Shown one piece after another: positions 1,335 through 34,402 of a DNA stretch of 35,686 nt. This DNA is from a virus (lineage: Duplodnaviria > Heunggongvirae > Uroviricota > Caudoviricetes). The notes under the pieces are model-generated. The model saw only the letters and a program-made list of their open reading frames with translations, did no database searches and was not told the origin of the DNA. Numbering within the stretch: position 1 is the stretch's first letter; the number at the start of each line of letters is the position of its first letter. The DNA lies in IMG/VR virus record IMGVR_UViG_2923302340_000008. One strand, written 5' to 3'. The position numbers and the translations under genes are program-made.

Positions 1335-1586
1335 TCAAGTAAGATGACGTCTTGGTCTTGCTGATGCCTGGCGCTCAATCCAGCGATCAATTTCTTCCAG
1401 GTTGTAAAAGCATGGACTGTTATCCCATGGCATACCGTCATGAGCGACATGCTTATATTCCCTTCCTTCCATAAACGATTTTTCCCGGGCCTTTTTTAAC
1501 GTACCTTTTTTTATTCCTTTCAGCGCAATTAACTGCTCTTCGGATACCCATTTGCCGGGAGAGACAATCATGATTACTTCGCTCAT
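1335..1586 (-). CDS. xis: Excisionase-like small DNA-binding protein
   Basis: 83-aa basic ORF immediately upstream of and co-directional with int, the classic xis position. The family is not identifiable by eye. Confidence 0.55.
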   Translation of the reverse strand: MSEVIMIVSPGKWVSEEQLIALKGIKKGTLKKAREKSFMEGREYKHVAHDGMPWDNSPCFYNLEEIDRWIERQASARPRRHLT

Positions 1587-1658
1587 CGATTTCTTTATCT
1601 CTTACATCAGACGAGCGCCGGTTGCAGAATACCAGTCACAACCGGCGACAGTTGAACA

Positions 1659-4130
1659 TTAAGAATCAGCCTGACTCGGGATCAGTTTTTGCCAGATAAC
1701 TGAAACGTATTTTGCCTGGTAACGGGCGTCATCAAGTGCATTATGGCGCTCACCTTCGAATGGAATAGCCGTTCTGGCATCGAAGTCTATGGCTTTCCCC
1801 AGCTCAACGATTGTGCGTACATCGCGATCGTTGTAGTAACGCCACGGACAGGGGATCCCCTGCCGTTCGTATGAACGGCGCAAAATCGTGTTGTCGAAGT
1901 TGGCTCCATTTCCCCAGACCTGAACAAAAAATTCACCGGAGTTTTCGTCGATAAATTCCCGCAATTGTAACAGTGCATCATCTAACGGGATTTCATCGGT
2001 CATAATGGCAGATTGCGCTTCGCGTGATTGCTTAAGCCACCATTTAATGGTGTCCCGATCAATGACTCCGCCAGCAGTTTCCAGATCGATAGTCTTACTA
2101 AATTCCGGTCCCATATCTCCGGTTTGCGGATCGAAAAATATTGCACCTATTGAGATGATCGGGGCATCAGGATTTTTTCCCATGGTTTCAAGGTCGATCA
2201 TTAGATGGTCACACGTCCTGCTGGTGGATGTGATTTCGTGATGACCGTTCACCTTAATTGAGTGATCTGCCGTCTCGCCAGTTTCATTATCGCTATCGTG
2301 ATGCTGATTGCCGCCAGTGTTCTCCTTGTGTGGATGTTCAGCGCCTTCCATTTCCTTCGGATCATCTTCCTGAACTTCAACCTGATACTCTTCATCGAAT
2401 GTTTCCTGGTATGTTGCGTCGCCCATCACCGCGCCACAATCAGGGCAGTTGCCGCCGCCGGTCTGACCGCAGGCGGTGCAGACTTTTTCCACTTCCTGTT
2501 GCGCCACTGGTTCAGGCTGTTTCGTTTCTGGCTCGTTTTGTAACGCATTTGGGCTGTTTTGTTCCGCTTTTTGGTAGTTCCGTTCCGATTCATGCTGGTT
2601 CTGGTTCACAGAATCGCGGGTCTGGATCCCCTTAACCCATTTCGGATCATTCGGGTCACTAATCCCTTCAACAAATTCACCACGTGATGCAGCAAGCAAC
2701 TTATCGGCGTCAGGCTGGCTGATATTGGCTGCCTGCATAATTTTGTTTACTTCGTCAGCGGTAACTTTTATCGGTTCTGGTTGTTCTGAATCTTCAGCGG
2801 TATCTACATTTTGCGGTAAGCCCGTGTATGTGCCATTTTTTCGGGCAAAATATTCTTCTTTAGTGATTTCAGTGGCGCCAGCAGCCAGTGCCTTATCCAG
2901 ACCAGAAAGTTTGTTTGCGCGACCGTATTTTTCTCCGTCCTTATCTGCGAAGAGGAAATAGAACGGCCCCTCACGCTCTACAGATGGTTCAGCTTCCGGC
3001 GCGGTTTCATTTTTTGGGATATCAGATACCTCAGTTTCCACTGCATCAGTTTGTGTTTCTGATGACTGGAGAACATCAACAGTGCCCAGGTCTGTTTCTT
3101 CATTCTCAAACACGCCCTTTGTCGTCAGGTATTCAGTAATGTATTTGTTCAGTGCCACAGGGTCTTTGTGAATGTCGATCGGACGTTCACGGACAAGGCC
3201 AAAAATAGTCTGGCGGTCGTAGCGAAGGGCATCAGGCTGTTTGCGCATTGATGCCGAGATACGCTTCCAGTCTTCACGGTCGTTGTCGATAACTTCATTT
3301 TTTGCCCAGCGATGGATGCTGCCGTCAATGTTTCCGGCATCCACATCACCAGGCCAGAGAGCGTAGGCCAGTTCGTCATCCAGTGTTTTCCATGTCTGCT
3401 TGTATTCGCGATGAATGGCAGCAATGACCGGGCTGAGTTTTCCTGTTGAATTTTCAGTGTGCTGTTGATTGGCTCTGGCGCGGGCGAGATCAACAACAGA
3501 CGTGTATTTTCCGGTTTCCTTGCGTTCACCTTCGCGACGTTTTTTCCAGATGCGCATCTCTGCCTGAATTTCGGGCCATTTGGCACCTGGCTTACATTTA
3601 TGCTTAACCCACCCGATGGCATGCAGCTTAAGCTCCGGATACATGGCGTTAACTTCTGGCATTTTCATCAACGCTTCAACGATATGTCCGTCGAATGTTG
3701 CCATGTCTTCCTGCAACAGTTCCTGCGCGCTAATCACCATATCAACGGTGATGTTTTCACATGTGTCGAACTTAACCATGACAGCGTTCTGTACTTCAGG
3801 GGCCAGCTTGTCAAAAGTGACGTTTATCGGATCTGATTCAGTCTCAACCGGGACAAAGGAAGCAGACTCCTCATCCCAGCGGTTTTCCTGCATATATTCA
3901 GCATCCCAGGAATCGAGGGCAGGGCGGGGTATGTCAGGTTTATCCTCGCAGACAATAAATTTATAAGCGCAGTCCTGAGCAGCCGTATAATGTTCCAGGA
4001 ACTGCCAGTGAAATTTTGCTCGAGCACGGCGTTCGTCGCCAGCTTCAATGGCTGTGGCTACAGCCACAGCGCCTTCTTCCCTTGTTGCCAGTTCGTCAGG
4101 AATAGCGGCGCAAATAAAGACTTTACTCAT
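1659..4130 (-). CDS. Phage exonuclease with C-terminal DnaQ-like (DEDDh) 3'-5' exonuclease domain and internal Cys4 zinc ribbon
   Basis: 823-aa ORF. The C-terminus carries DLETMG…GNGANFD…HNALDDARYQAKY motifs typical of DEDDh exonucleases. A CTACGQTGGGNCPDCG zinc-ribbon lies mid-protein. A GAGG RBS lies about 10 nt upstream. It occupies the exo position of the leftward early operon. Confidence 0.75.
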   Translation of the reverse strand: MSKVFICAAIPDELATREEGAVAVATAIEAGDERRARAKFHWQFLEHYTAAQDCAYKFIVCEDKPDIPRPALDSWDAEYMQENRWDEESASFVPVETESDPINVTFDKLAPEVQNAVMVKFDTCENITVDMVISAQELLQEDMATFDGHIVEALMKMPEVNAMYPELKLHAIGWVKHKCKPGAKWPEIQAEMRIWKKRREGERKETGKYTSVVDLARARANQQHTENSTGKLSPVIAAIHREYKQTWKTLDDELAYALWPGDVDAGNIDGSIHRWAKNEVIDNDREDWKRISASMRKQPDALRYDRQTIFGLVRERPIDIHKDPVALNKYITEYLTTKGVFENEETDLGTVDVLQSSETQTDAVETEVSDIPKNETAPEAEPSVEREGPFYFLFADKDGEKYGRANKLSGLDKALAAGATEITKEEYFARKNGTYTGLPQNVDTAEDSEQPEPIKVTADEVNKIMQAANISQPDADKLLAASRGEFVEGISDPNDPKWVKGIQTRDSVNQNQHESERNYQKAEQNSPNALQNEPETKQPEPVAQQEVEKVCTACGQTGGGNCPDCGAVMGDATYQETFDEEYQVEVQEDDPKEMEGAEHPHKENTGGNQHHDSDNETGETADHSIKVNGHHEITSTSRTCDHLMIDLETMGKNPDAPIISIGAIFFDPQTGDMGPEFSKTIDLETAGGVIDRDTIKWWLKQSREAQSAIMTDEIPLDDALLQLREFIDENSGEFFVQVWGNGANFDNTILRRSYERQGIPCPWRYYNDRDVRTIVELGKAIDFDARTAIPFEGERHNALDDARYQAKYVSVIWQKLIPSQADS

Positions 4131-4827: not shown

Positions 4828-5102
4828 ATTGATAACAGAGGGCGTTGCAGCGGGGTTGTCACTTAAGCGTATGGTTAACCTGACAACTCGGTGTCCTCAA
4901 CGGGGAAGGAATAACCCCGCCATACTTACCGCCGCGCCATTTCGCGGGTTGCCACAACCGGAAGCGCACGGTCGAATTAAATTTAACGACACCGTACAGT
5001 GAGACGAACTTCGCCGTGCGCTTTCGTGTTGTGTGCCTGCTTTTAACCACGTCAGGCGAGGTGGTATCCTTCTTATCCCGAATAACCAAGAAGGAAATCT
5101 AT

Positions 5103-5303
5103 ATGACTAAAGAAGAATTTGTCTCTTATATTTTTGATAAAACGGTTGAAATGTATGCCGCTACTTACGGGTCCTGTAATCCTCTGAATAAACCAGAGGG
5201 GAAAGATGATTTCGACAAAATTTACCGCTTCTTGGAGGATCGCTATATCAAAAGGTTAGAGGACGCAGGGATCAAATCCCCAGTGAAGTCACCATTGTCC
5301 TGA
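5103..5303 (+). CDS. Hypothetical 66-aa protein encoded on the strand opposite to the dicB operon
   Basis: ATG preceded by a strong RBS (AAGAAGGAAAtctatATG). Codon composition is protein-like. No recognisable family. Confidence 0.4.
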   Translation: MTKEEFVSYIFDKTVEMYAATYGSCNPLNKPEGKDDFDKIYRFLEDRYIKRLEDAGIKSPVKSPLS

Positions 5304-5649
5304 GAACTTGCAGGACGTCATGATCGTAACTTCCATCCAAACCGCGACGGCAAATTGCTTCTCGTATTACCGGAAGCAGTTCGCTGGAAATCTCGGTGCA
5401 TATTTCACCTGCTAATACGCCTGGTTCAAGTGAGAATATTGGTGAACTTACGGTCTTGGTCTCGACAGTTTCAGAGTCAGTGCCAACATTATAAAGCTCA
5501 ACGAAAGCGGTCTTGATTTTCCGGGCCAGATCTTTTGCTGGCTCGCTTGCAATATCTTTCCCGATTTCTCGCAGCACAGAATGCAATGTATGAGCTGCTG
5601 TTTTCTGTACATCAGACGGTAAATCTTTAAATTCCATCGTCAGCCTCAT
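5272..5649 (-). CDS. Hypothetical 125-aa protein of the dicB operon
   Basis: Its start overlaps the ydfA-like stop (TGATG), suggesting translational coupling. Composition is protein-like. Family unknown. Confidence 0.5.
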   Translation of the reverse strand: MRLTMEFKDLPSDVQKTAAHTLHSVLREIGKDIASEPAKDLARKIKTAFVELYNVGTDSETVETKTVSSPIFSLEPGVLAGEICTEISSELLPVIREAICRRGLDGSYDHDVLQVLRTMVTSLGI

Positions 5650-5801
5650 CAGTCAGTGTTTCTGGCTAACCAGCAACGCGCGCCAGATTCGGTTTTAAAC
5701 GTTTTGCTTTTGGTATATGTCATCGCGGTGAACGTACCGTCCTGGTTGGGGAACACGCCACATACCAGAGATTCGCTGTTGCCAAGATCGATAGTATCCA
5801 T
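5649..5801 (-). CDS. ydfA: YdfA-like small protein (first gene of dicB operon)
   Basis: 50-aa product MDTIDLGNSESLVCGVFPNQDGTFTAMTYTKSKTFKTESGARCWLARNTD resembles recalled Qin YdfA. It lies downstream of the dicA-like gene. Confidence 0.6.
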   Translation of the reverse strand: MDTIDLGNSESLVCGVFPNQDGTFTAMTYTKSKTFKTESGARCWLARNTD

Positions 5802-5914
5802 GCTGACCTCATTTCCCCTTAACGCCGGGGTAGCGGAACTGTTTGCTGAGAACACCGTGCGGTGTGTTGATGGAGGTGATTTGGTTTTCTCATTGTTTTT
5901 CGTCAAGGTTTTTT

Positions 5915-5936
5915 GATGAGAAAACTCAAGTATTGG
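5915..5936. promoter_or_regulatory. Candidate DicA operator in the dicB-operon promoter region
   Basis: gaTGAGAAAACTCAAgTATTGG is a near-exact copy of the site at 6450..6470. It contains the inverted repeat TGAG-aaaa-CTCA. It lies between the dicA stop and the ydfA start. Confidence 0.5.
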
Positions 5937-5993
5937 CGCAAGATAAAGCCAATACATTGAAATGTAAGGCTTTAAAATTTTGTGAAGGGATGA

Positions 5994-6401
5994 TTATTGA
6001 TGCTTGTTGCGTTTGCGAGCCTCTAATAGCTCGGTGAACAGGCGATTAAAATTCTCAACGCGGGCGCGGAGTTCGCTGAGTTGTGCTTGTTGCTCTGATT
6101 TAGGAAGTGCGCGATACAAACGCAGCATCTCTAACTCATCTTCCGATAAGTCTAAGGCACTATCGAGTGAAACAGGGGGAGCTGGTGTTTTGTCCTCGTC
6201 GCCAAACAGTATCCAGGTTGGTGAACATTGCAATACCTCGGCGAGGCGATGCAAATTTTGCCCGCGCGGGGCTGTATGGTCACTTTCCCATAATGAAATT
6301 GATGAGCCAGATACGCCAGCAGCTTTGCTTAAACCGTTTTGACTTAAGCCTACCTGCTTACGTCTTTCTCTAATGCGTTGACCTAAAGTTTTCTCGTTCA
6401 T
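5994..6401 (-). CDS. dicA: DicA-like HTH (XRE-family) repressor
   Basis: 135-aa product from MNEKTLGQRIRERRKQVGLSQ… with an N-terminal HTH and the motif LQCSPTWILFGDEDK recalled from DicA. It is divergent from the dicC-like gene. Confidence 0.8.
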   Translation of the reverse strand: MNEKTLGQRIRERRKQVGLSQNGLSKAAGVSGSSISLWESDHTAPRGQNLHRLAEVLQCSPTWILFGDEDKTPAPPVSLDSALDLSEDELEMLRLYRALPKSEQQAQLSELRARVENFNRLFTELLEARKRNKHQ

Positions 6402-6449
6402 ATTTAGATATCTTAATAACCCTTGACTTGAGATTCCTTGAGTGATTAG

Positions 6450-6470
6450 CATTGAGAAAACTCAATATTG
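6450..6470. promoter_or_regulatory. Candidate DicA/DicC operator in the divergent intergenic region
   Basis: atTGAGAAAACTCAAtATTGG with inverted repeat TTGAG-aaaa-CTCAA. It overlaps a putative dicC promoter (TTGACT at 6423..6428) and lies just upstream of the dicC RBS. Confidence 0.5.
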
Positions 6471-6478
6471 GAGGTGCG

Positions 6479-6706
6479 ATGTTTAAATCAGACGTAATTA
6501 ATTTTTACGGTACGAAAGCCAAAGTAGCGAAAGCTGCTGGCGTTGACCCATCTGCTGTTTCTCAATGGCAAGAGCTGGTTCCTGAAGGTCGCGCGATGCG
6601 TCTACAGGAGGCATCTGGCGGCGAGCTTCTGTATGATCCCAAGGTTTATGACGAATATCGTAAGACGAAGCGGGCGGGGCGGTTGAACAATGAAAATCAC
6701 TCCTGA
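6479..6706 (+). CDS. dicC: DicC-like Cro-type regulator
   Basis: 75-aa product with C-terminus …LVPEGRAMRLQEASGGELLYDPKVYDEYRKTKRAGRLNNENHS as recalled for DicC. GGAGG RBS. Divergent from dicA. Confidence 0.75.
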   Translation: MFKSDVINFYGTKAKVAKAAGVDPSAVSQWQELVPEGRAMRLQEASGGELLYDPKVYDEYRKTKRAGRLNNENHS

Positions 6707-7211
6707 ACAGGCTCGTGAGGCTCTGGATGCTTGGATATGTCGACCAGGAATGACACAGGAGCAGGCGACGATATTAATCACTGAAGCATTCTGGGCTTTG
6801 AAAGAGCGCCCGAACATCGATGTTCAGCGTGTCACAGATGAAGGTGGCGCGGTTGATCAGCGAGCGCTTGGCGTTAATCGAGTGAAGATATTCGAACGCT
6901 GGAAGGCTATCGACACCAGGGATAAGCGTGAAAAGTTCACGGCGCTAGTGCCTGCAATTATGGAGGCTATCCGGATTAATGATTTCAGGTTGTATCGTGA
7001 AATTAGTGACGGAAAAAGCATCACGTACATGATCGCCGGGTTAAACAAAGAATATGGCGATGTGGTGGAGTCCGGACTGCTTTTTGCTGATCCTGCCGTA
7101 GTGGATCGTGAAACTGACGAACTTATAGAAAAAGCAATTGCTTTCAAACTTGCGTATCGACAGCAATACCAACAAAAAGCTGGATGGAATTATGAGCCTT
7201 CTTTTTGCTGA
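6690..7211 (+). CDS. Phage early-region protein of unknown function
   Basis: 173-aa ORF beginning inside the dicC 3' end and co-directional with it, upstream of the replication gene. No recognisable motifs. Confidence 0.5.
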   Translation: MKITPEQAREALDAWICRPGMTQEQATILITEAFWALKERPNIDVQRVTDEGGAVDQRALGVNRVKIFERWKAIDTRDKREKFTALVPAIMEAIRINDFRLYREISDGKSITYMIAGLNKEYGDVVESGLLFADPAVVDRETDELIEKAIAFKLAYRQQYQQKAGWNYEPSFC

Positions 7212-8157
7212 ACGCCCACTGGTTATAAACACACAGCTTGCGATGAAGATTGGCTTAAATGAAGCCATTGTGTTGCAGCAGTTGCATTACTGGTTGAGAG
7301 ATACCAATTCCGGCATGGAATGTGATGGTGTTCGCTGGATTTACAACACAACGGAACAATGGCTGGAACAGTTCCCATTCTGGTCAGAGTCAACGTTAAA
7401 GCGCGCGTTTGCAAGTCTGAAAACGCTGGGGCTTTTGCGTTGTGAAAAGCTCAATAAATCAAAGCGCGATATGACCAATTTCTACACGATTAACTATGGG
7501 AGCGAGCTTTTAGATGATGGCAAATTGAGCGAATCCATCGGTTCAAAATGCGCCGCTCCATCAGGTCAAAATGACACGATGGAAGAGGTCAAAATGAAAC
7601 GCTCCATTGGTTCAAAACGACCCAATGTCATCGGGTCAAAATGGCCTGATGATCTTACAGAGAATACAACAGAGATTACTACAGAGAATAAAAACACTTT
7701 TCGTCCGGAAGCTTCGCAATCGGACCCGCAGACAGCTGAACAGAATTATTTAACCCAATATCCTGACGCGGTGGTTTTCAGTGCTAAAAAACGTCAGTGG
7801 GGGAATCAGGAGGATTTGGCGTGTGCGCAATGGATCTGGGCACGAATCGTGAGCCTTTACGAACAGGCCGCCAGTGATGATGGCGAGATCATGCGACCAA
7901 AAGAGCCTAACTGGACTGCCTGGGCTAATGACGTGCGCACAATGCGGATGCTGGATGGCAGAAGCCATAAACAAATTTGCGAAATGTTTGGTCGGGTTCA
8001 GCGAGATCCATTCTGGGTAAAAAACATCATGAGCCCTTCAAAGCTCCGCGAAAAATGGGATGAACTGGTCATTCGCCTGGGGCGTTCACCTGTACAGCGT
8101 TGTGTGAATCATATTTCTGAGCCGGACAGCGAAATTCCACCGGGATTCAGGGGGTAG
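7192..8157 (+). CDS. Replication initiation / replisome-organizer-like protein with N-terminal HTH
   Basis: 321-aa product. The N-terminal region (NTQLAMKIGLNEAIVLQQLHYWL) is HTH-like. Repeated SIGSK/VIGSK peptides are encoded by an internal iteron array, analogous to ori inside lambda O. Confidence 0.65.
   Translation: MSLLFAERPLVINTQLAMKIGLNEAIVLQQLHYWLRDTNSGMECDGVRWIYNTTEQWLEQFPFWSESTLKRAFASLKTLGLLRCEKLNKSKRDMTNFYTINYGSELLDDGKLSESIGSKCAAPSGQNDTMEEVKMKRSIGSKRPNVIGSKWPDDLTENTTEITTENKNTFRPEASQSDPQTAEQNYLTQYPDAVVFSAKKRQWGNQEDLACAQWIWARIVSLYEQAASDDGEIMRPKEPNWTAWANDVRTMRMLDGRSHKQICEMFGRVQRDPFWVKNIMSPSKLREKWDELVIRLGRSPVQRCVNHISEPDSEIPPGFRG
7537..7644. repeat. Iteron array (candidate replication origin) inside the replication initiator gene
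   Basis: Five copies of a GG(T)TCAAAA(T/C)G motif spaced about 23-24 bp apart, at 7540, 7564, 7587, 7609 and 7633. Confidence 0.6.
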
Positions 8158-8159
8158 GT

Positions 8160-8372
8160 ATGCACAGCAGTAATCAACAGGCCGCAATCCAGCATTTGCT
8201 GGAGAACGGGGAAGCCACGTTCCGGGAGCTGGCTGATGCTCTTGGTGTGACCAACAAGAAAATTCAAAACCTGCTCCAGAACATACAGCGGTACGGGCAG
8301 CTTGTGCGGGAGGGGGAAAAATATCGGCTGGTACCGAACTGGCAGGAAAAATCTGCATTGCAAAAGCGGTAA
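8160..8372 (+). CDS. Small winged-helix/HTH-like protein
   Basis: 70-aa ORF with an ATG 2 bp after the replication gene stop and a G-rich RBS. Motif FRELADALGVTNKKIQNL is HTH-like. Confidence 0.5.
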   Translation: MHSSNQQAAIQHLLENGEATFRELADALGVTNKKIQNLLQNIQRYGQLVREGEKYRLVPNWQEKSALQKR

Positions 8373-8621
8373 CCGAAAGGTCAACAGCGTCGAAACAGGC
8401 TGCGGCGCAGGAATGTCGCCGGAACAGCAACGGATACCAGAGACAAAAAATTTTGGGGAGTAGTCGGGGAGTCGGTAACAGAGCTTAGGTAGAGCAATTG
8501 ATGCCAACTGACCTCTAACGTTTTGTTTCATGTTGTCATTATGTTTCAATTTAGTGGAATTGTTAATAAAGTGTTTTTATAATTAAAAACCAAACTACAG
8601 ATAGCATGGAGCTTTTGTTCA

Positions 8622-10178
8622 ATGAATGCCTATAAATTCAGAAATAATGATGAGATTGGAAAATTAGAGGCGGAAACTGATTCTTATCTTGATGCTTGTT
8701 TTTATGAGTCCAATGTTTTTAAAGGTATTGTGAATTTTGACTCTACTGAGAAGAATCCTGATTTTACAAGAAGAATTATTGTTGGAAGAACAGGAAGCGG
8801 TAAGTCTGCGTTGCTTAAAAAAATATTAGACAAAGGAAATATTAAGCTGCATGACACAATAGAGGCAGAAAATACGATATTTGAACATATTAATAACAAT
8901 GTGTTTATATCTGATTTGATCTCGAAAGGGATAGATTTACGTGGGTTTTATAAATCGTTATGGCTGCATGTATTACTTATGAAAGTTATACCAGCCGTTT
9001 ATCGTTCTTCCTATCAAAGCTTTTTTGAGGAAATTAAAGATCTTATTGGTGGTAAGAAGAAACCGTATAAACCAGAAGTTGCGAATGATTATATTGAACA
9101 ATTTAAAGAAAATTTCTTCAATGATAAAGCGCTCATTGAAATAAGTAACAAGCTTGAAAGTGATTTGTCATTCAAACTCGGAAATTCCGCTGTTGGTGTG
9201 GGTGGTAAAATATCTAATTCTGATACAGCCAAAATACAATCAGAAACTTCAAGTTATGTGAGTCGTGAACTTCTTTTTAAACAAAAAGAACTTATTAAAA
9301 TACTTAAAGAGGAGTTCGCTGACTCAAACCAGGTTAGAATAGTAATCAGTATCGATGATTTAGATAAATCTTGGTTAAGCACGAGCGCCATCAGATATGA
9401 CTTTATTAATGCTCTTCTTGAGGCCTTTCGAGAATTATTAGATATAAAGTCGGTTAAGGTTCTGATATCAATAAGAACAGATATTTTAATGGGAATTTAT
9501 AAAAGTAGTTTAAGGCAGGATGAGAAAGATCAATCTTTAATATATTCCATATCATGGAATAAAACGGAAATAAGAGAGATTATTGATGCTAGAATTAACC
9601 ATTTGGTTAAAAATAGATATCAATCAAATAAGTCTGTATTAATGAAGGATATTTTTAATTTTACAGTTGAAGGTATTGGAGCAGATGATTATATCCTTGA
9701 CAGAACAATGCTTAGGCCTAGAGATGCAATTAATTTCGTAAATATATGTCTTTCTGAGTGCGATGGTATGGTTAACATGAATGAAAATATTGTGTTAATT
9801 GCCGAAGAGAAATTTTATTCGTCCAGAAAGAGAGCTTTGGTTACAGAATGGAAAAGCATATATCCGTTTATCGAAGAATATTTGGATGTGCTTTCCTTGA
9901 TTTCATTTTCTGATTTTACAGTCTCAAACATAGGACAAGCAGTAAAAGATGATATATCGCAGCATTTACTTGATAGATTGACTGTAGTTAAAGAGGATGA
10001 TCAACATACAAAAATATTGATGAATTTTGAGGAGTTACTTAAAGTCTGGTTCGTCGTAGGCGTGGTTGGCATAAGGAAAACAGTATCTTTAATTTTATAT
10101 TCATCTTTTGATAAACCTAATTTGGATATTACTGATATGAAGAGAGATTTTGTAATACATCCGTTGTTTGATAGGTAA
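8622..10178 (+). CDS. AT-rich P-loop NTPase of unassigned family (candidate defence or abortive-infection protein)
   Basis: 518-aa ORF. Walker A is IIVGRTGSGKSALLKKI near residue 55. Walker B-like VRIVISIDDLDKSW lies near residue 243. Candidate sensor and arginine motifs are ISIRTD and LRPRD. Base composition is markedly AT-rich versus flanks. A TATAAT hexamer sits at 8578..8583 and a GGAG RBS upstream. Confidence 0.75.
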   Translation: MNAYKFRNNDEIGKLEAETDSYLDACFYESNVFKGIVNFDSTEKNPDFTRRIIVGRTGSGKSALLKKILDKGNIKLHDTIEAENTIFEHINNNVFISDLISKGIDLRGFYKSLWLHVLLMKVIPAVYRSSYQSFFEEIKDLIGGKKKPYKPEVANDYIEQFKENFFNDKALIEISNKLESDLSFKLGNSAVGVGGKISNSDTAKIQSETSSYVSRELLFKQKELIKILKEEFADSNQVRIVISIDDLDKSWLSTSAIRYDFINALLEAFRELLDIKSVKVLISIRTDILMGIYKSSLRQDEKDQSLIYSISWNKTEIREIIDARINHLVKNRYQSNKSVLMKDIFNFTVEGIGADDYILDRTMLRPRDAINFVNICLSECDGMVNMNENIVLIAEEKFYSSRKRALVTEWKSIYPFIEEYLDVLSLISFSDFTVSNIGQAVKDDISQHLLDRLTVVKEDDQHTKILMNFEELLKVWFVVGVVGIRKTVSLILYSSFDKPNLDITDMKRDFVIHPLFDR

Positions 10179-10408
10179 TAGCAATGTGAATATGTTGAGA
10201 CTACTGGAAAAGCTATAACTCCTTTAGTAAAGTTTCCGTGGGTGCTTGAGGCTATCTGTCTCAGGCATGAACACCAAAGGCAGATAGAGAAAAGCCCCAG
10301 TTAACATTACGCGTCCTGCAAGACGCTTAACATTAATCTGAGGCCAATTTCATGCTAGACACATGTAGGTTAGCCTCTTACGTGCCGAAAGGCAAGGAGA
10401 AGCAGGCT

Positions 10409-10564
10409 ATGAAGCAGCAAAAGGCGATGTTAATCGCCCTGATCGTCATCTGTTTAACCGTCATAGTGACGGCACTGGTAACGAGGAAAGACCTTTGCGA
10501 GGTACGAATCCGAACCGGCCAGACGGAGGTCGCTGTCTTCACAGCTTACGAACCTGAGGAGTAA
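10409..10564 (+). CDS. hokD: Hok-family type I toxin (HokD/RelF-like)
   Basis: 51-aa product MKQQKAMLIALIVICLTVIVTALVTRKDLCEVRIRTGQTEVAVFTAYEPEE matches recalled Hok-family sequence. GGAGA RBS. An in-frame upstream extension from 10352 is present. Confidence 0.85.
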   Translation: MKQQKAMLIALIVICLTVIVTALVTRKDLCEVRIRTGQTEVAVFTAYEPEE

Positions 10565-10633
10565 GAGACCCGGCGAGGGAGAAATCCCTCGCCACCTCTG
10601 ATGTGGCAGGCATCCTCAACGCACCCGCACTTA

Positions 10634-10665
10634 ACCCGCTTCGGCGGGTTTTTGTTTTTATTTTC
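10634..10665 (+). terminator. Rho-independent terminator downstream of hok
   Basis: CCCGC-TTCG-GCGGG hairpin followed by TTTTTGTTTTT. A second hairpin, GAGGGA-gaaa-TCCCTC, lies at 10575..10590. Confidence 0.7.
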
Positions 10666-10780
10666 AACGCGTTTGAAGTTCTGGACGGTGCCGGAATAGA
10701 ATCAAAAATACTTAAGTAGCGCGCAGGGAGAAGAGGGATGGTCCCTTAAAGGGGAGAGCTAATTATCCGGAAGGATTCTG

Positions 10781-11044
10781 ATGATGAACATGATGATGAA
10801 CATCGAAGAACTGCGTAAAAATTTTTGTGAAGATGGCCTCTATGCTGTGTGCGTTGAAAATGGAAATCTTGTTAGTCATTACCGCATTATGTGTTTGCGA
10901 AAGAATGGGGCTGCGTTAATTAATTTTGTGGATGGTCGAGTGACAGACGGATTTATCTTGCGCGAAGGTGAGTTTGTCACTTCATTACAGGCACTGAAAG
11001 AGATCGGAATAAAAGCAGGCTTTTCAGCTTTTGCAGAAGAATAA
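10781..11044 (+). CDS. Hypothetical protein
   Basis: 87-aa ORF with an AAGGA RBS and tandem Met codons. Family unknown. Confidence 0.45.
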   Translation: MMNMMMNIEELRKNFCEDGLYAVCVENGNLVSHYRIMCLRKNGAALINFVDGRVTDGFILREGEFVTSLQALKEIGIKAGFSAFAEE

Positions 11045-12990: not shown

Positions 12991-13515
12991 TTATTGTTTA
13001 ACCCATAATAGTTCATTGACATTGAATCCCAACTTTTGAGCGGTACGCACATAGTCTGCTTTTACATTATCTGGAATAGTTTGGGTCCTTGCCAGAATCC
13101 ATAGGTATTCTCTGTTCGGACCACTGACAAGAGCATACTTATACTCATCATCCAGCTTGATTACATTATAGCCACCATAGAAGGGGCCAAAAAACGAAAC
13201 TTTCAACGCTGCAGTTTTAGTATCTCCAGTAAAGTATGCTTTACCTTCGCTCTCGCTCCATTTGTTTTTCGTTGGATCGTATCCACGGTTAAGTACGCGA
13301 ATCCCTCCGTCGTTCCGTTTTTCATAAGTAGCGCTGACTTGTTCCAGACCACGTTCGAACCAGTTCTCGAGGCGAGCTATTTCATACCATTTTCCGAGGT
13401 AGCGGTTGGCGTCAAAATTTGTAATCGGCTGCACACCTTTAGGTGGTGTCGGGGCCTTACATGCTATAAGAGTGAAAGAGAGTGCAATGCCAGTCAACAC
13501 AGGCCATAACTTCAT
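12991..13515 (-). CDS. blc: Blc-like outer-membrane lipocalin lipoprotein (moron)
   Basis: 174-aa ORF with a signal peptide and lipobox (LIAC). Lipocalin-like motifs (NFDANRYLGKWYEIARLENWFERG) are present. Confidence 0.75.
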   Translation of the reverse strand: MKLWPVLTGIALSFTLIACKAPTPPKGVQPITNFDANRYLGKWYEIARLENWFERGLEQVSATYEKRNDGGIRVLNRGYDPTKNKWSESEGKAYFTGDTKTAALKVSFFGPFYGGYNVIKLDDEYKYALVSGPNREYLWILARTQTIPDNVKADYVRTAQKLGFNVNELLWVKQ

Positions 13516-13707: not shown

Positions 13708-14667
13708 ATGATAAAAAAACCTGTGATTGGGATCAGCGGTTGTTTGGGCGGTTCTGCTGTTCGTTTTGATGGTGGTCACAAAAGAGATGACTTTTTAATG
13801 GACAAATTAGTGGAATGGGTAACATTCAGACCAGTATGTCCGGAAATGGCTATAGGGCTGCCAGTTCCGCGTCCTGCTCTACGACTTGTGCGCTCGAAGC
13901 AAGGAAATATACGGATGTGTTTCAGCCACGACCAGAATGAGGATGTGACAGAGAGAATGACAGAGTTTAGTCGTTCTTATATGGACAAATTAAAGGATGT
14001 ATCGGGGTTTGTGGTTTGTGCTAAATCTCCCAGCTGTGGCATGGAGCGCGTGCGTGTCTATGATGAAAATGGTAATCGAGGTCGTAAAGATGGAGTGGGA
14101 CTATTTACGAGCACTTTGATGGAAAAGTTTTCCTGGCTACCGGTTGAAGAGGATGGGCGATTACATGATCCAGTGCTTCGTGAGAATTTTATTGAAAGAG
14201 TTTTTGCTTTGCATGAGCTCAATCATCTTTACAAGGAGAAATTATCAAGAAGAGAGTTATTAGCTTTTCATAGTCGTTATAAGCTTCAGTTGTTGGCGCA
14301 TAGCCAGGCAGGCTATAAAGATATGGGACCATTTGTGGCTGCAATACACGAGTGGGCGGACCTTGAATCATACTTTGAGGTGTATCGTGATAATCTGATG
14401 GCGATTCTCAGAAAACCAGCATCACGTAAAAATCACACGAATGTGCTGATGCATATACAGGGGTATTTTAGTAATTACTTAAGTACACGCCAGCGTAAAG
14501 AGTTGAGCGAGGTTATACTTAACTATCGCTTTGGCACATTGCCTCTTCTTGCGCCGTTGACTCTGCTGAAGCATTATCTGGGTGAGTATCCTAATGATTA
14601 CTTGCTTACACAGAATTACTTCGATCCCTATCCGGAAGAACTGGCTCTAAGACTGATGGTGAATTAA
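13708..14667 (+). CDS. DUF523/DUF1722 fusion protein (TudS-like Cys-rich N-domain with YbgA-like C-domain)
   Basis: 319-aa ORF. The N-terminus GISGCLGGSAVRFDGGHK plus further conserved Cys residues suggest DUF523. The C-terminal half is helical, as in DUF1722. This assignment is from memory. Confidence 0.55.
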   Translation: MIKKPVIGISGCLGGSAVRFDGGHKRDDFLMDKLVEWVTFRPVCPEMAIGLPVPRPALRLVRSKQGNIRMCFSHDQNEDVTERMTEFSRSYMDKLKDVSGFVVCAKSPSCGMERVRVYDENGNRGRKDGVGLFTSTLMEKFSWLPVEEDGRLHDPVLRENFIERVFALHELNHLYKEKLSRRELLAFHSRYKLQLLAHSQAGYKDMGPFVAAIHEWADLESYFEVYRDNLMAILRKPASRKNHTNVLMHIQGYFSNYLSTRQRKELSEVILNYRFGTLPLLAPLTLLKHYLGEYPNDYLLTQNYFDPYPEELALRLMVN

Positions 14668-14759: not shown

Positions 14760-15665
14760 CTATATTTCCAGACATCTGTTATCACTTAACCCATTACAGG
14801 CCCGCTGCCGCAGATATTCCCGTGGCGAGCGATAACCCAGCGCACTATGCGGATGCCATTCGTTATAATGCTCGAACGCCTCTGCAAGGTTCTTTGCTGC
14901 CGTTAACCCGTCTGGTTTGGGCATGATACTGATGTAGTCACGCTTTATCGTTTTCACGAAGCTCTCTGCTATTCCGTTACTCTCCGGACTCCGCACCGCC
15001 GTGTTCTTCGGTTCAAGTCCCAACATCCGGGCGAACTGGCGTGTTTCATTAGCCCGGTAGCATGAACCATTATCCGTCAGCCACTCCACTGGAGACGACG
15101 GAAGATCGTTGCCGAAGCGGCGTTCCACCGCTCCCAGCATGACGTCCTGTACTGTTTCACTGTTGAAGCCGCCAGTAGTCACCGCCCAGTGCAGTGCCTC
15201 ACGATCACTGCAGTCCAGCGCGAACGTGACACGCAGTCTCTCTCCGTTATCACAGCAGAACTCGAACCCGTCAGAGCACCATCGCTGATTGCTTTCTTTC
15301 ACGGCCACTCTGCCTGTATGTGCCCGTTTCGATGGCGGTACAGCAGGTTTTCGCTCAAGCAACAGCGCATTCTGGCGCATGATCCGGTAAACACGTTTGG
15401 CATTGATCGCAGGCATACCATCAAGTTCTGCCTGTCTGCGAAGCAGCGCCCATACCCGACGATAACCATACGTGGGCAGCTCTCCGATAACATGGTGTAT
15501 ACGGAGAAGCACATCCGTATCATCAGTGTGACGACTGCGGCGGCCATCCATCCAGTCATCGGTTCGTCTGAGAATGACGTGCAACTGCGCACGCGACACC
15601 CGGAGACAACGGCTGACTAAGCTTACTCCCCATCCCCGGGCAATAAGGGCGCGTGCGCTATCCAC
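14760..15665 (-). CDS. insD: IS2 transposase InsD (OrfB)
   Basis: 301-aa product [23 protein letters not shown]… matches recalled IS2 InsD. DDE integrase core. Confidence 0.9.
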
Positions 15666-15988
15666 TTTTTTGCCCGTCCATATTCAACGGCTTCTTTGAG
15701 GAGTTCATTTTCCATCGTTTTCTTGCCGAGCAGGCGCTGGAGTTCTTTAATCTGCTTCATGGCGGCAGCAAGTTCAGAGGCAGGAACAACCTGTTCTCCG
15801 GCGGCGACAGCAGTAAGACTTCCTTCCTGGTATTGCTTACGCCAGAGAAATAACTGGCTGGCTGCTACACCATGTTGCCGGGCAACGAGGGAGACCGTCA
15901 TCCCCGGTTCAAAGCTCTGCTGAACAATTGCGATCTTTTCCTGTGTGGTACGCCGTCTGCGTTTCTCCGGCCCTAAGACATCAATCAT
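15623..15988 (-). CDS. insC: IS2 InsC (OrfA)
   Basis: 121-aa product [24 protein letters not shown]… matches recalled IS2 InsC. It overlaps the insD start, as expected for a frameshift fusion. Confidence 0.85.
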
Positions 15989-16400: not shown

Positions 16401-17123
16401 GTGGATAATATGCCATACATATGTTCTATCATTTTGGTGTTGAACTCGTTTGGTGTCCGAATTGGTAAAGAAGATATTTTGTTTAAAAAAGGAAATGCTG
16501 TCCTCATTGAATACAATTTAAAAGATCTTTTTTCGTCAAATACAGATCATCTAATGATCGTAGATGTTGAGGAGAAAACAGTTAATGATTTCTTTAAAAA
16601 CTACACACTCTCACCTTTTTCTGTAAGAAGGTTTTATCCGTCATACTTGATAGTAGAATGTGAAGATTTTTCATTGTTAAGGAACTTGGTTGCATGCTTG
16701 AATTGTGATAGCAAAACCGTGGATGTAGTTAGAAATCAAATATCACTTGCATGTCTTGCTGTCTTATCTTCAGAGAAAATAGTGCAAAGTTTTTTGTTCG
16801 GAAGTCTTAATAGCTTAGGTTGTAAAGTTAAGGCTATTATTCACTCGGATATCTCAGCGTCATGGAGACTTTGTGATATATCTTCAAGATTATATATGAG
16901 CGAGAGTTTGTTAAAAAGAAAATTAAAAGACGAAGGATTATCGTTTAGTAAATTAATTCTTGAAGAACGAATGATGATGGCGCAAAGATTATTGATCTAC
17001 AGTAACCATACTGTCGGCAAGGTGGCGGGAATATGCGGGTATGACAATGCATCATATTTTGTAAGTGTTTTTAGAGGATATTTTGGTGTGCCTCCGCACC
17101 AATATTTATCAAGATTTTCTTAG
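16401..17123 (+). CDS. AraC/XylS-family transcriptional regulator (AppY/PatE-like)
   Basis: 240-aa ORF in a strongly AT-rich segment. The C-terminus carries an AraC-type HTH (…KVAGICGYDNASYFVSVFRGYFGVPPHQY). Confidence 0.75.
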   Translation: MDNMPYICSIILVLNSFGVRIGKEDILFKKGNAVLIEYNLKDLFSSNTDHLMIVDVEEKTVNDFFKNYTLSPFSVRRFYPSYLIVECEDFSLLRNLVACLNCDSKTVDVVRNQISLACLAVLSSEKIVQSFLFGSLNSLGCKVKAIIHSDISASWRLCDISSRLYMSESLLKRKLKDEGLSFSKLILEERMMMAQRLLIYSNHTVGKVAGICGYDNASYFVSVFRGYFGVPPHQYLSRFS

Positions 17124-32474: not shown

Positions 32475-33065
32475 TTATATATCAGGTGTCTGATTTTTTG
32501 CTTTAGCTCTTAAAATGGTTTGCCGCGAGGTTTTGAATTCTTGGGCAATGTCACTTATATTTATACCTGACTTAATTTGCTCTAGTACCCTCTGTATTTG
32601 TTCATCATTTAACACAGGTGGGCGACCAAATCGCTTTCCTGCGCCCCGTGCTCTTAATATCCCTGAATGAGTACGCTCAAGTAAAAGGTCTCGCTCAAAT
32701 TCAGCGACTGCTGAAATTACTTGCATCATCATTTTTCCAGGTGGACTGGTCAGGTCAACGCCCCCCAATGCTAAGCAATGCACTTTGATACCTGCTTTGG
32801 TCAGTTGTTCCACCGTTTTACTGATATCCATTGGATTACAACCGAGGCGATCCAGTTTTGTGACAATCAATGCATCACCTCTTTTCAGTCGATCAAGCAA
32901 CTGGTTAAAACCAGGACGCTCACTGGTTGCTGCTGAGCCGCTAATTTGTTCTTCAATTATTTGCTGAGATTTGATGTTAAAACCTGCACTTTCGATTTCC
33001 CGACGTTGATTTTTGGTTGTTTGTTCCAGAGTTGATACCCGACAGTAAGCATAAATTCGAGACAT
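32475..33065 (-). CDS. pin: Serine recombinase / DNA invertase (Pin/Gin/Hin family)
   Basis: 196-aa product [15 protein letters not shown]… has the catalytic Ser near the N-terminus and a C-terminal HTH. Length matches PinQ/PinR. Confidence 0.9.
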
Positions 33066-33383
33066 AGTGAGATCTTCTATACGAAATTGGTGTACATATC
33101 ATAATGCATCTCAGGAAATAATTTTGATTATTTTTGTACATATTTGTATGTACACGTTCGAAAATAAACGAATGCGTATGCAACCCCGTAATTTTGGTGA
33201 GACCCAAAATCGATTTTGTGAAAAATGGCCTTAACTCGGTTTGTTTTTCGAGTTCCGGGCGGACTCAAGGAAGAAGAATAGTGTTGCGTGTTATTTCAAC
33301 CAGATTTCAAGTTGTTTGGTCGTGGAAAAGTGGAGCAAAATGTTGTTAAAGTGGAAAAATGATAAAAAAGTAAGTTTATTATA

Positions 33384-33617
33384 TTACATTTTACCATTTA
33401 AATTTTTGTTGTCTTTAAGAACTGATATCGCTGTTTGTAATAATTCTTTGTTATCCAGCCATGACTTTTTCTTTATGTTTCCTTCAATGTAATCAAGCAA
33501 TGTTCTGGTATTGATAGGTCTTCCCTGTTTTGCTACTTCCACTACAGCATCCCCTAGGATAATTCTTACTTCAGGAAGCTGCGCAGGGAACCACTTTAGG
33601 GTGTCTTTTGATTTCAT
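33384..33617 (-). CDS. ydfK: YdfK/YnaE-like small protein
   Basis: 77-aa product MKSKDTLKWFPAQLPEVRIILGDAVVEVAKQGRPINTRTLLDYIEGNIKKK… matches recalled YdfK/YnaE. It lies adjacent to pin as in Qin. Confidence 0.75.
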   Translation of the reverse strand: MKSKDTLKWFPAQLPEVRIILGDAVVEVAKQGRPINTRTLLDYIEGNIKKKSWLDNKELLQTAISVLKDNKNLNGKM

Positions 33618-34402
33618 GAAGATATTCCTTAAAATATTATTGATTTTCATTGCGATATTGTATGTCTGATTCAGGATATGTTGACTTATACATCGGTTTT
33701 GTCTGGGTTATTGGATATGCCAATCCCTAATTTTATTAGAGCATGACTAAAAATGCTGAATATGATAAGGAGCGAAGTGATTATCAGTATGCTGTTCATA
33801 TAGCCTCGAATTAGTAATGTGTTATATATGATATAGTTGACAATTTTTATCCTGGGGGTTCTTAAAGTTCGTAGATAAACATTGTCGTTTCAGGTATACA
33901 GGAATGCTAACAGGTGGCGGCAAAAATCAGGCGGTTTATGGCGCAAGCTGAAGTGGCAACTGCAAACTATCTTATGCAGAGACTCTACACGGATTGGGTT
34001 TAAAAGTATACATAGATAACAGTTTTTATCTGAAGAAGAAAAATATCAAGGTGATATAGCCTATATGCCTTTGATGCGGAGGAATGAATGTGATGGGAGT
34101 GATGTATCTGAATAGTTGAAAAACCGCAGACACGCCTTATGCAAGAACGTGCTGCGGTTGGCTGGTAAATTTTTCGATAGTGCGAGTATTGAATGATTTC
34201 CAGCCGTTATTGATTTTACGCGTAAATCCATGAAAAAACTACTTATCTGTTGGGGAGTCTTTTTGGGGCATATATGGGACAGAAATAGGCCCCAGATAGA
34301 CACTGAGATCGAACTTAGGATGCTTTTTAAAAAATGCAACTATCTGAAAAAACCTAGAAAACGCCAAGGAAACCACAGGATGGGAAAAAACACCTGTGAA
34401 TT

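Follow-up and report, generated by a model that had tools for sequence, protein, structure and literature searches.

Several described defence systems come close to the locus discussed here, either in the fold of their ATPases or in the way their genes are placed. DS-41 ('AAA2', WP_033812887.1) is a single-gene anti-phage system that was validated in DefensePredictor (Science 2026, PMC13092281). When present alone on a plasmid, it protects against lytic phages by up to ~3.6 log, with defence defined in that study as a plating drop of at least 10-fold or smaller plaques for genes cloned in E. coli K-12. Among 24 proteins that are remotely homologous to defence proteins but were scored as non-defensive by its model, the same work found only one that defended, so remote homology alone is weak evidence. 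KAP-type NTPases without known effector domains have also recently been shown to defend and, in the case of EF_KAP, to need Walker B for defence (PMC12632615). BrxC from BREX, RdrA from RADAR, and the Avs proteins (AVAST) have a fold in common with the ATPase described below, but BREX is made up of six genes and RADAR includes the RdrB deaminase, whereas this ATPase is solitary. Avs proteins have nuclease, protease, or SIR2 domains together with large sensor arms, and it has neither. In terms of placement, the P2 tin/old locus and the hotspots of temperate phages have a fixed backbone position at which unrelated cargo alternates (Rousset 2022, PMC9122126; Vassallo 2022, PMC9519451). The slot described here is organized likewise, but it differs from the P2 and P4 hotspots of these two studies in being lambdoid (Qin/Rac-like).

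The stretch of DNA that was analysed, called the window in what follows, is 35,686 nucleotides long and comes from a virus of the Caudoviricetes (IMG/VR record IMGVR_UViG_2923302340_000008). The features of interest are collected in Table 1. In the reading that we favour, an AT-rich cassette was acquired into a slot of this Qin-like E. coli prophage, and its ATPase probably acts alone as an anti-phage gene of the superinfection-exclusion type, expressed from the prophage, in the manner of its remote relative DS-41; the activity, its trigger, and the mode of inhibition are what we infer. The prophage also carries IS2 and pseudogenes.

Table 1. Features of the ATPase cassette and its neighbours, in coordinates of the window
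Feature	Position	Strand	Basis
O-like replication/DNA-binding gene	7192..8157	+	Annotation of identical record
70-aa winged-HTH (wHTH) gene, Ren-like; prophage backbone at the slot's left border	8160..8372	+	phrog_142
Horizontally acquired AT-rich cassette (leader, ORF, 28-bp tail; ~1.7 kb)	~8508..10206	+	Alignment edges, GC step
AT-rich leader with putative own promoter and RBS	8508..8621	+	Consensus motifs
Candidate defence gene, single 518-aa soluble P-loop ATPase (WP_107235934.1)	8622..10178	+	ORF, NF047389 match, RefSeq annotation
Walker A codons, GRTGSGKS (residues 55-62, K61)	8784..8807	+	G55-K61 invariant, 37 homologues
Walker B codons, IVISIDDLD (residues 240-248, D245 D246)	9339..9365	+	Homologue alignment
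Lid motif R-P-R-D (residues 365-368), sensor-2-like arginine motif	9714..9725	+	R365, P366, D368 invariant in 37 homologues
C-terminal winged-helix-like domain (residues 408-518)	9843..10175	+	
hok/sok regulatory RNA region	10240..10414	+	Rfam RF01794
hokD toxin gene, the slot's right border	10409..10564	+	Pfam HOK_GEF, 81.6 bits; annotated hokD in identical record

An earlier note on this DNA, made from its letters alone, had described the 518-aa reading frame as AT-rich against its flanks, and this is borne out by a GC content of 0.314 (GC3 0.264) compared with 0.47 to 0.52 for the flanking genes. The frame starts with ATG and is intact. The same note had left the family unassigned and called the gene undescribed, which does not hold. 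The protein matches the NCBIfam model NF047389, "P-loop ATPase, Sll1717 family," with 178.8 bits (E 2.1e-52) against a curated cut-off of 75 bits for this subfamily-level model, and the match is full-length, covering protein residues 12 to 516 and profile positions 1 to 450 of 454. The RefSeq name for WP_107235934.1 is also "P-loop ATPase, Sll1717 family." DS-41 (P0135) passes NF047389 as well (97.6 bits) in addition to its own equivalog model, NF053860 ('DS41_1 anti-phage protein'; 414 bits). On the latter model true DS-41 relatives score 371 to 414 bits, while the window protein, at 39.1 bits, stays below the cut-off of 370. The family is already named and has one validated member, and the window protein does not represent a new category of system. 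An exhaustive search puts the family at 1,718 clusters at 50% identity, and the best 150 representatives are 500 to 593 aa in length with the same architecture and no extra domains.

Other searches place the protein more broadly. Pfam PF07693 (KAP_NTPase) is matched with 28 bits (E 1.6e-6), above its gathering score of 20, over part of the profile (positions 30 to 206 of 293). In profile searches, the matches of the window protein to nSTAND1, NACHT, and AAA_22 were below cut-offs, and there was no sequence match to the Cdc6, ORC, DnaA, or DnaC families. The protein had no significant match to a system component in PADLOC-DB v2.0.0, where mad8 and mad3 appeared at P-loop level only (E ~0.01), and a search of the sequences of solved structures returned uninformative P-loop-level matches (LRRK2 Roc, E ~0.04). 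It is not among the entries listed in the accessible part of the DefensePredictor table. Our literature search found no paper on 'Sll1717' and none on the clade of the window protein under the terms ORC-CDC6-like and KAP P-loop. What the earlier note had put forward as a candidate defence gene is still best described as such, a P-loop NTPase with a plausible role in defence.

In the AF2 model (pLDDT 83.6, pTM 0.80), the whole protein is an ORC/Cdc6-like module of the AAA+/STAND type, with an NTPase core that bears a helical insert, followed by a lid and, at the C-terminus, a winged helix. The best Foldseek matches are BrxC, ORC, and RdrA, and the predicted structure has the AAA+ core, lid, and winged helix that define the ORC/Cdc6-type fold. 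All 518 residues are assigned to N-terminal helices, the NTPase core, the lid, or the winged helix. The insert, which is predicted to be soluble, is ~140 residues long and separates Walker A from Walker B. A C-terminal region of ~270 aa had been said to lack a recognisable fold; its residues ~250 to 410 are predicted to form the remainder of the core plus the lid, with the winged-helix-like domain occupying the rest. Neither an effector domain nor a large C-terminal sensor (repeat) domain was found in the protein, and no membrane segment is present (highest Kyte-Doolittle 19-mer 1.67). The Walker A and Walker B-like motifs are present as first described, at a spacing of ~184 residues, and both are invariant in 37 homologues, with I242, S243, D245, D246, L247, and D248 fixed in Walker B. 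The sensor-1 arginine, R285, is invariant in the same set (n = 37), and the lid motif may act as sensor 2, judging from the ORC/Cdc6- and KAP-type fold.

The likeness to DS-41 goes beyond the umbrella model NF047389, which both proteins pass. Both are encoded by solitary, AT-rich accessory genes in Enterobacterales, are ~500 to 520 aa long, and lack an effector domain, and in both the Walker A motif, the hhhhD(D/K)LD motif, the 'ISWN' strand, and the lid PR(D/E) motif occur in matching order and register. The window Walker B aligns with VLIDKLDE of DS-41, and RPRD with SPRE of the DS-41 clade. Over the stretch that runs from Walker B to the lid, hhalign places the two clades in register (89.5%, E 2e-6), and reciprocal HMM searches gave matches for all 120 proteins in one direction and for 117 of 120 in the other. 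The relationship is nonetheless a remote one: the BLASTP match is confined to 74 residues at 24% identity, HMM scores from clade to clade come to 8 to 28 bits, R285 has no counterpart in DS-41, and the C-terminal domains cannot be aligned by sequence. With the KAP defence NTPases (PifA of plasmid F, EF_KAP, and relatives; PMC12632615), the window protein shares PF07693 above the gathering score, Walker motifs set apart by a long insert, a PR-type lid motif, a solitary gene, and a C-terminal region without a known enzymatic domain. It differs in lacking the TM helices, set within or beside the NTPase domain, that are typical of classical KAP proteins and are also present in EF_KAP (PMC12632615), and in that its C-terminus is a lid and winged helix rather than a 300-aa unknown 'effector' region.

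These features suggest how such a protein might work. The ATP-bound form would serve as an ATP-driven switch. A phage component, either DNA or protein, would be recognised by the helical insert, the winged helix, or both, and recognition would lead to ATP-dependent assembly. Since the protein has no enzymatic effector domain, assembly as such would form the block, for example to phage DNA replication or packaging, by occupying the step or by sequestering a factor; the choice of step is speculative. In a further-reaching version, which we regard as unlikely, the protein would be a self-contained, effector-less immune ATPase with a mechanism new to bacterial defence, such as ORC-like, ATP-dependent assembly in which the winged helix and insert engage phage DNA or a phage protein of replication or packaging, causing a physical block with a specificity unlike that of DS-41, and the slot would count as a lambdoid defence hotspot that had not been named before. 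If the ATPase does defend, experimental support would reach a second and very divergent clade, beyond DS-41, of a large family whose 1,718 clusters are currently annotated merely as "P-loop ATPase." It would also offer a compact 518-aa model for how an effector-less ORC/Cdc6-like ATPase stops phage, and the same question stands for DS-41.

The edges of the cassette can be traced by alignment and by base composition. On the left, the O-like gene is the last gene common to ~2,780 E. coli genomes, and similarity to these stops at ~8150-8159. Identity to the Rac-like prophage of strain C41 fades near ~8508, and GC falls from 0.526 (8373-8507) to 0.289 (8508-8621). On the right, similarity to ~4,550 E. 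coli genomes restarts at 10207. The position of the gene between replication genes and hok, and the presence of its own AT-rich leader, were described correctly at the outset. The leader contains TGGAAT as a -35 element, a 17-nt spacer, a perfect -10 element (TATAAT, 8578-8583), and GGAG at 8608-8611. The -35 and -10 elements follow the consensus, the former weakly, and point to a putative promoter for the ATPase gene; a consensus scan called no promoter in the leader because the -35 element fits at only 3 of 6 positions. The gene is missing from E. coli MG1655. Among 5,426 complete E. coli genomes, the ATPase gene is found in 10, CFSAN018748 being one of the carriers, whereas the flanks occur in thousands, and together with the sharp GC step at the edges this identifies the cassette as separately acquired cargo, in agreement with the earlier note.

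The rarity of the gene also bears on whether it could be a replication or partition accessory of the element, for instance an ORC/Cdc6-like initiator or loader. This is very unlikely, although its best structural matches and its position directly after the replication genes would fit. The replication gene also occurs in ~2,770 genomes that have no ATPase and carry DUF977 and other genes in its place, and copies of the ATPase gene elsewhere sit on plasmids and ICEs equipped with RepA, ParAB, or a relaxase of their own, or on chromosomes with no replicon nearby. Its GC is foreign and uniform (30-34%), ORC/Cdc6, DnaA, and DnaC give no sequence match, a conserved syntenic role in a replication module is lacking, and BrxC, RdrA, and Avs, all of them ATPases of defence systems, have the same fold.

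What occupies the slot in other prophages agrees with an anti-phage role. Comparison with sister prophages found the slot to be variable, and in the same position these carry validated defence systems, PD-T7-1 (521 bits) or IetA and IetS (437 and 887 bits), in keeping with the defence-hotspot pattern that had been anticipated; small nin-like genes also alternate between the replication gene and hok. The comparison with relBE was right in part. In K-12-type Qin, relB-relE does lie directly 5' of hokD, but the junction is not identical, as relBE there replaces the entire hok/sok leader that is kept in the window. The replication-to-hok/sok slot of Qin/Rac-like prophages is a variable defence hotspot, and our literature search found no paper that names it. 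Since it alternates between PD-T7-1, ietAS, relBE, and the ATPase, it is a practical place to seek further systems across thousands of E. coli genomes.

The genes at the borders of the slot raise the question of a partner. An inverted repeat (CTATCTG, 10253-10259; CAGATAG, 10282-10288) had been taken for a hairpin downstream of the ATPase gene. The repeat is there, but it corresponds to the first stem in the sok/hok model of Rfam, RF01794, which is matched with 118.3 bits (gathering score 59) over model positions 1 to 157 of 157. Because this stem lies in DNA common to ~4,550 genomes, it is part of hokD and not of the ATPase gene, and it was rejected as a terminator for the latter. The sole terminator-like site on the + strand (10633-10650) comes after hokD, and the scan found none between the ATPase gene and hokD. 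This arrangement, with the three genes adjacent on the same strand, would suit a two-component abortive-infection or toxin-antitoxin-like module in which the ATPase is one half and hok/sok or the 70-aa wHTH protein the other, as would the occurrence of the wHTH and ATPase genes in the identical set of 10 E. coli genomes. Such a module is highly improbable. In ~4,550 genomes, hokD and its leader occur while the ATPase is missing. The wHTH protein matches phrog_142, 'Ren-like exclusion protein' (E 4.7e-8), its gene has a phage-like composition (GC 0.52, GC3 0.63), and in C41 a frameshifted copy of it, 75% identical, stands just before ietAS; a tblastn search of a phage genome collection gave no match to it. 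The wHTH gene was rejected as a partner on its GC, its place 5' of ietAS, the cassette edge at ~8508, which excludes it, and its absence beside orthologues of the ATPase.

These orthologues (70-89% identity) are found on IncFII plasmids, on ParAB plasmids, on an ICE, at the edge of a P2-like prophage, and on chromosomes. Neither hok nor the wHTH gene is present in any of the six orthologue contexts in other genera, so the partnership with one or the other that had earlier been considered is contradicted; standing alone as they do, the orthologues argue that there is no partner gene. The DNA up- and downstream of the six loci cannot be aligned outside the ORF, and thus no larger mobile unit was seen. 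The copies in Photobacterium are surrounded by ordinary chromosomal genes and are accompanied by no marker of a mobile element, and a tblastn search of 50,697 phage records gave no match to the ATPase. Paralogues at ~30% identity are present on 91 plasmids, 58 of which are conjugative.

This distribution allows for a role in conflict between mobile elements other than classical phage defence, such as keeping out competing plasmids or ICEs, or a modulating or counter-defence role that serves the carrier element. Many copies are carried by conjugative plasmids and ICEs, where they adjoin partition, relaxase, ArdC, or TA genes, and BrxC-like and KAP-like ATPases act in several kinds of conflict system. 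We consider this quite unlikely, however, as DS-41, the only family member tested, guards against lytic phages alone on a plasmid, and the slot in the window elsewhere houses anti-phage systems.

The gene could finally be selfish or neutral cargo, for example a silenced AT-rich hitch-hiker of no benefit to host or prophage. It is rare (10 of 5,426 genomes) and AT-rich enough to be a plausible target of xenogeneic silencing, and IS2 and pseudogenes occur in the same prophage, yet there is very little probability that this explains it. Compared with its orthologues, the ATPase gene has a pN of 0.08 to 0.23 and a pS of ~0.8, values that are given in place of dN/dS because synonymous sites are saturated, and all orthologues are at 30-34% GC and under purifying selection. 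The intact frame, more than 100 positions that are invariant across genera, a pN far below pS, and the spread of the family over 1,718 clusters argue for a selected function.

The P-loop ATPase gene of this Qin-like prophage, which is inserted adjoining rspB/ynfA, is a real ORF situated between an O-like replication gene and hokD (see table). E. coli CFSAN018748 (NZ_CP028192.1) matches the window at 100% identity, and the protein, WP_107235934.1, contains both of the motifs proposed for it earlier, Walker A (GRTGSGKS, residues 55-62) and Walker B (IVISIDDLD, residues 240-248), each invariant in an alignment of 37 homologues of 53-89% identity. The earlier note had considered the family unassigned, which is no longer tenable, as the protein scores 178.8 bits (cut-off 75) on the NCBIfam model NF047389 (P-loop ATPase, Sll1717 family), its residues 12-516 covering profile positions 1-450 of 454, and the annotation of all ten E. 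coli records with the gene names the same family. Pfam adds a KAP_NTPase match barely above threshold (28 bits against a gathering score of 20), and the protein falls under the cut-offs of AAA_22, nSTAND1, and NACHT. PADLOC v2 returned P-loop noise and no further match. The PHROGs match is to a family without a name (phrog_13260, E 6e-20). More than 400 word-indexed homologues are almost all 510-530 aa long, and an exhaustive profile search gave 1,718 clusters (50% identity) at E <=1e-3 and 461 at E <=1e-30. The best 150 of the 1,718 measure 500-593 aa and all match over their whole length; near relatives therefore carry no fused extra domains.

AlphaFold2 models the full protein confidently (pLDDT 83.6, pTM 0.80), and the top Foldseek ranks of the model are BrxC, ORC/Cdc6, and RdrA (E 1e-4 to 1e-2), aligned over some 240-270 residues that take in the core of the NTPase, a sensor-1 strand (VLISIR) whose R285 is invariant, and a helical lid carrying an invariant RPRD motif. 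Walker A and Walker B are set apart by an all-helical insert (residues 94-231, about 140 in all), in which no transmembrane segment was found. The 518 residues are predicted to form a single module in the ORC/Cdc6/STAND style, with core, lid, and winged helix, a fold common to the defence ATPases BrxC, RdrA, and Avs. The C-terminal half, once described as having no recognisable fold, is filled in the model by the remainder of the core, the lid, and the winged helix. The 518 residues include no effector domain, whether nuclease, protease, TIR, SIR2, or of another kind.

The Sll1717 family is already named and annotated, and one member has been validated. This is DS-41 (working name AAA2, WP_033812887.1, 502 aa), a single-gene system from the DefensePredictor study that protects in plating assays by up to ~3.6 log (Bas63 3.6, Bas3 2.7, Bas19 2.3) and has homologues extending into Halobacteria (PMC13092281). 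The DS-41 model NF053860 (DS41_1 anti-phage protein) matches the window protein over its full length but weakly, at 39 bits (E 4.5e-10) against an equivalog cut-off of 370, and BLASTP between the two gives 24% identity over 74 residues only. DS-41 itself scores 414 bits on its own model and 97.6 bits on NF047389; as both proteins pass NF047389, they belong to the same curated family, though to remote clades. When the DS-41 family was retrieved and the alignment of one clade set against that of the other, hhalign covered 149 columns, beginning at Walker B and reaching the lid (probability 89.5%, E 2e-6). The DS-41-clade HMM matches all 120 proteins of the window clade at 24-28 bits, and the reverse search matches 117 of 120 (median 8 bits), the register always being the same, with VISIDDLD/VLIDKLDE, ISWNKTEIREIID/ISWNNDELKEMLD, and RPRDAINF/SPRELIKL aligned as window/DS-41 pairs. 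The window clade lies far from DS-41 within the family.

The gene is AT-rich against its flanks, as had been noticed, with a GC content of 0.314 (GC3 0.264) compared with 0.469 for the O-like gene, 0.521 for the upstream winged-HTH (wHTH) gene, and 0.498 for the hok locus. Other E. coli genomes resemble the window up to ~8150-8159, where the O-like gene ends, and again from 10207. The wHTH gene lies inside this dissimilar interval; it is phage-like in composition (GC 0.52, GC3 0.63), and the Rac-like prophage of strain C41 carries a frameshifted, 75%-identical copy with ~135 bp downstream before other cargo begins. Identity with C41 stops near 8508, exactly where GC drops from 0.526 to 0.289, which bounds the acquired unit on the left. 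In its leader, TGGAAT precedes a perfect TATAAT (8578-8583) by 17 nt and GGAG follows at 8608, plausibly a promoter of the gene's own; a consensus scan made no call there because the -35 is weak.

Orthologues keep a GC of 30-34% whatever the host, and against the window gene their pN is 0.08-0.23 with pS saturated at ~0.8. Such conservation contradicts a neutral cargo, which we regard as very improbable. At 70-89% identity, they occur between an integrase and a TacAT module on Enterobacter IncFII conjugative plasmids, adjoining parAB on Yersinia plasmids, adjoining relaxase, UvrD, and ArdC in a Citrobacter/Klebsiella ICE, with an integrase on either side at the border of a P2/186-like prophage of Yersinia enterocolitica, and beside HTH, Fic, and ICE-type genes in Dickeya; a Photobacterium orthologue (63%) stands among ordinary chromosomal genes. 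The flanking DNA does not align past the ORF, and neither wHTH, hok, nor any recurring neighbour accompanies the gene in the inspected contexts. A partnership with hok or wHTH, which the earlier note had entertained, is therefore contradicted by co-occurrence, leaving half of a two-part module a very slim prospect; no partner is indicated at any orthologue locus examined. Comparative evidence describes a selected, mobile, and solitary gene. An accessory role in replication is improbable, its distribution and mobility arguing against it.

Paralogues of ~30% identity are found on 91 plasmids, 58 of them conjugative. One of them, WP_000026497.1, is a 557-aa protein that records label "hypothetical protein" or "DNA repair protein"; it is frequent on plasmids, IncF-type and others, from Klebsiella, E. 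coli, and Raoultella (plasmid matches H66-H95) and represents another clade of the same family.

The interval from the replication gene to hok is variable. Among 5,426 complete E. coli genomes the ATPase gene is present in 10, the left-flank replication gene in ~2,780, and the hok flank in ~4,550. In sister prophages the place is taken by DUF977 together with small genes that vary from one prophage to the next, pseudogenes, a methyltransferase remnant, or IS elements. Across Qin/Rac-like prophages the ATPase and such small-gene arrays alternate with a reverse-strand PD-T7-1 in strain EC20 (PADLOC 520.7 bits), a system that Vassallo et al. 2022 validated (PMC9519451), with IetA/IetS (436.8 and 887.4 bits) and then a Hok/Gef gene in C41, and with relBE, directly upstream of hokD as the earlier note has it, in K-12-type Qin. 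These occupants indicate that the slot acts as a defence or addiction-module hotspot, supporting the central idea of the earlier note; no report naming it as such was found in the literature searched. The right-hand junctions differ, since relBE of K-12-type Qin takes the place of the whole hok/sok leader that the window still has. "Hypothetical" genes beside PD-T7-1 (314 aa) and ietAS (254 and 72 aa) could be further cargo or accessory genes; PADLOC gave no match for the 314- and 254-aa proteins.

Taken together, membership of NF047389 alongside DS-41, the BrxC/RdrA/Avs fold, the solitary, mobile, AT-rich character of the gene, its rarity, and its slot make a single-gene anti-phage ATPase expressed from the prophage the best explanation, and a fairly probable one. 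The DefensePredictor authors caution that remote homology alone is a poor predictor of defence, since 1 of 24 remote homologues scored non-defensive by their model protected (PMC13092281); genomic context weighs as much as homology here. Service in another kind of conflict between mobile elements is unlikely, if less so than the readings set aside above. As an anti-phage protein, the ATPase may be an ATP-dependent switch that recognises a phage component via the helical insert and/or winged helix and, as it has no effector, would exert its inhibition through assembly or occupancy. The gene is worth cloning, and the hotspot is useful to know of.

Features of the window and of the comparison loci
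Sequence	Feature	Position	Strand	Remark
Window	Slot compared	8160-10240		
Window	wHTH gene	8160-8372		70 aa; similar to Ren-like exclusion proteins, phrog_142, E 4.7e-8
Window	Acquired cassette	~8508-10206		114-bp AT-rich leader, ORF, 28-bp tail
Window	ATPase ORF	8622-10178	+	ATG start, 518 aa
Window	sok/hok RNA (RF01794)	10240-10414		Model positions 1-157/157; 118 bits, gathering score 59
Window	isrK Hfq-binding sRNA match	10573-10654	+	25.7 bits, gathering score 50
Window	Lipocalin (Blc-like) gene	12991-13515	-	
Window	YbgA-like gene	13708-14667	+	2-thiouracil desulfurase and DUF1722
Window	IS2 copy	14760-15988		
Window	AraC-type regulator gene	16401-17123	+	240 aa; HTH_18, 59.9 bits; GC ~0.32
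Window	pin-like serine recombinase gene	32475-33065	-	
Window	AT-rich stretch	33066-34400		GC 0.33-0.39
Window	ydfJ-like transporter gene	34403 onward		Chromosomal
EC20 (L004)	Slot compared	6151-8992		
EC20 (L004)	314-aa gene	6151-7095	-	
C41 (L021)	Slot compared	6001-9965		
C41 (L021)	254-aa and 72-aa genes	10014-10999	-	
K-12-type Qin (L022)	Slot compared	1530-2283		
K-12-type Qin (L022)	relE end to hokD start	2056-2128		72 bp; hok/sok leader gone
Paralogue locus (L020)	Paralogue gene	4995-6668		

The inverted repeat CTATCTG...CAGATAG, earlier taken as a hairpin belonging to the ATPase gene, was ruled out as its terminator. It is the first stem of sok/hok RF01794, in DNA ~90% identical to that of ~4,550 of the 5,426 genomes, and on this evidence is assigned to hokD. 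With its complete leader, the window hokD probably functions as a type I toxin-antitoxin locus under normal regulation, which sets it apart from the relBE-hokD arrangement of K-12. The sub-threshold isrK match overlaps a terminator-like hairpin that follows hokD and probably reflects no more than the 3' end of the hok mRNA.

Elsewhere in the prophage, the lipocalin and YbgA-like genes lie just downstream of the Q antiterminator gene and look like metabolic or envelope cargo rather than phage genes. The AraC-type regulator is encoded on a second AT-rich island that has IS2 and the holin gene as neighbours, at the site for morons downstream of Q. The IS2 copy separates the late-gene regulator region from the lysis genes, with a truncated ydfR pseudogene further right, and the prophage may be defective. 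The AT-rich stretch between the recombinase and transporter genes, with no ORF of at least 90 aa on the + strand, probably marks the prophage right end.
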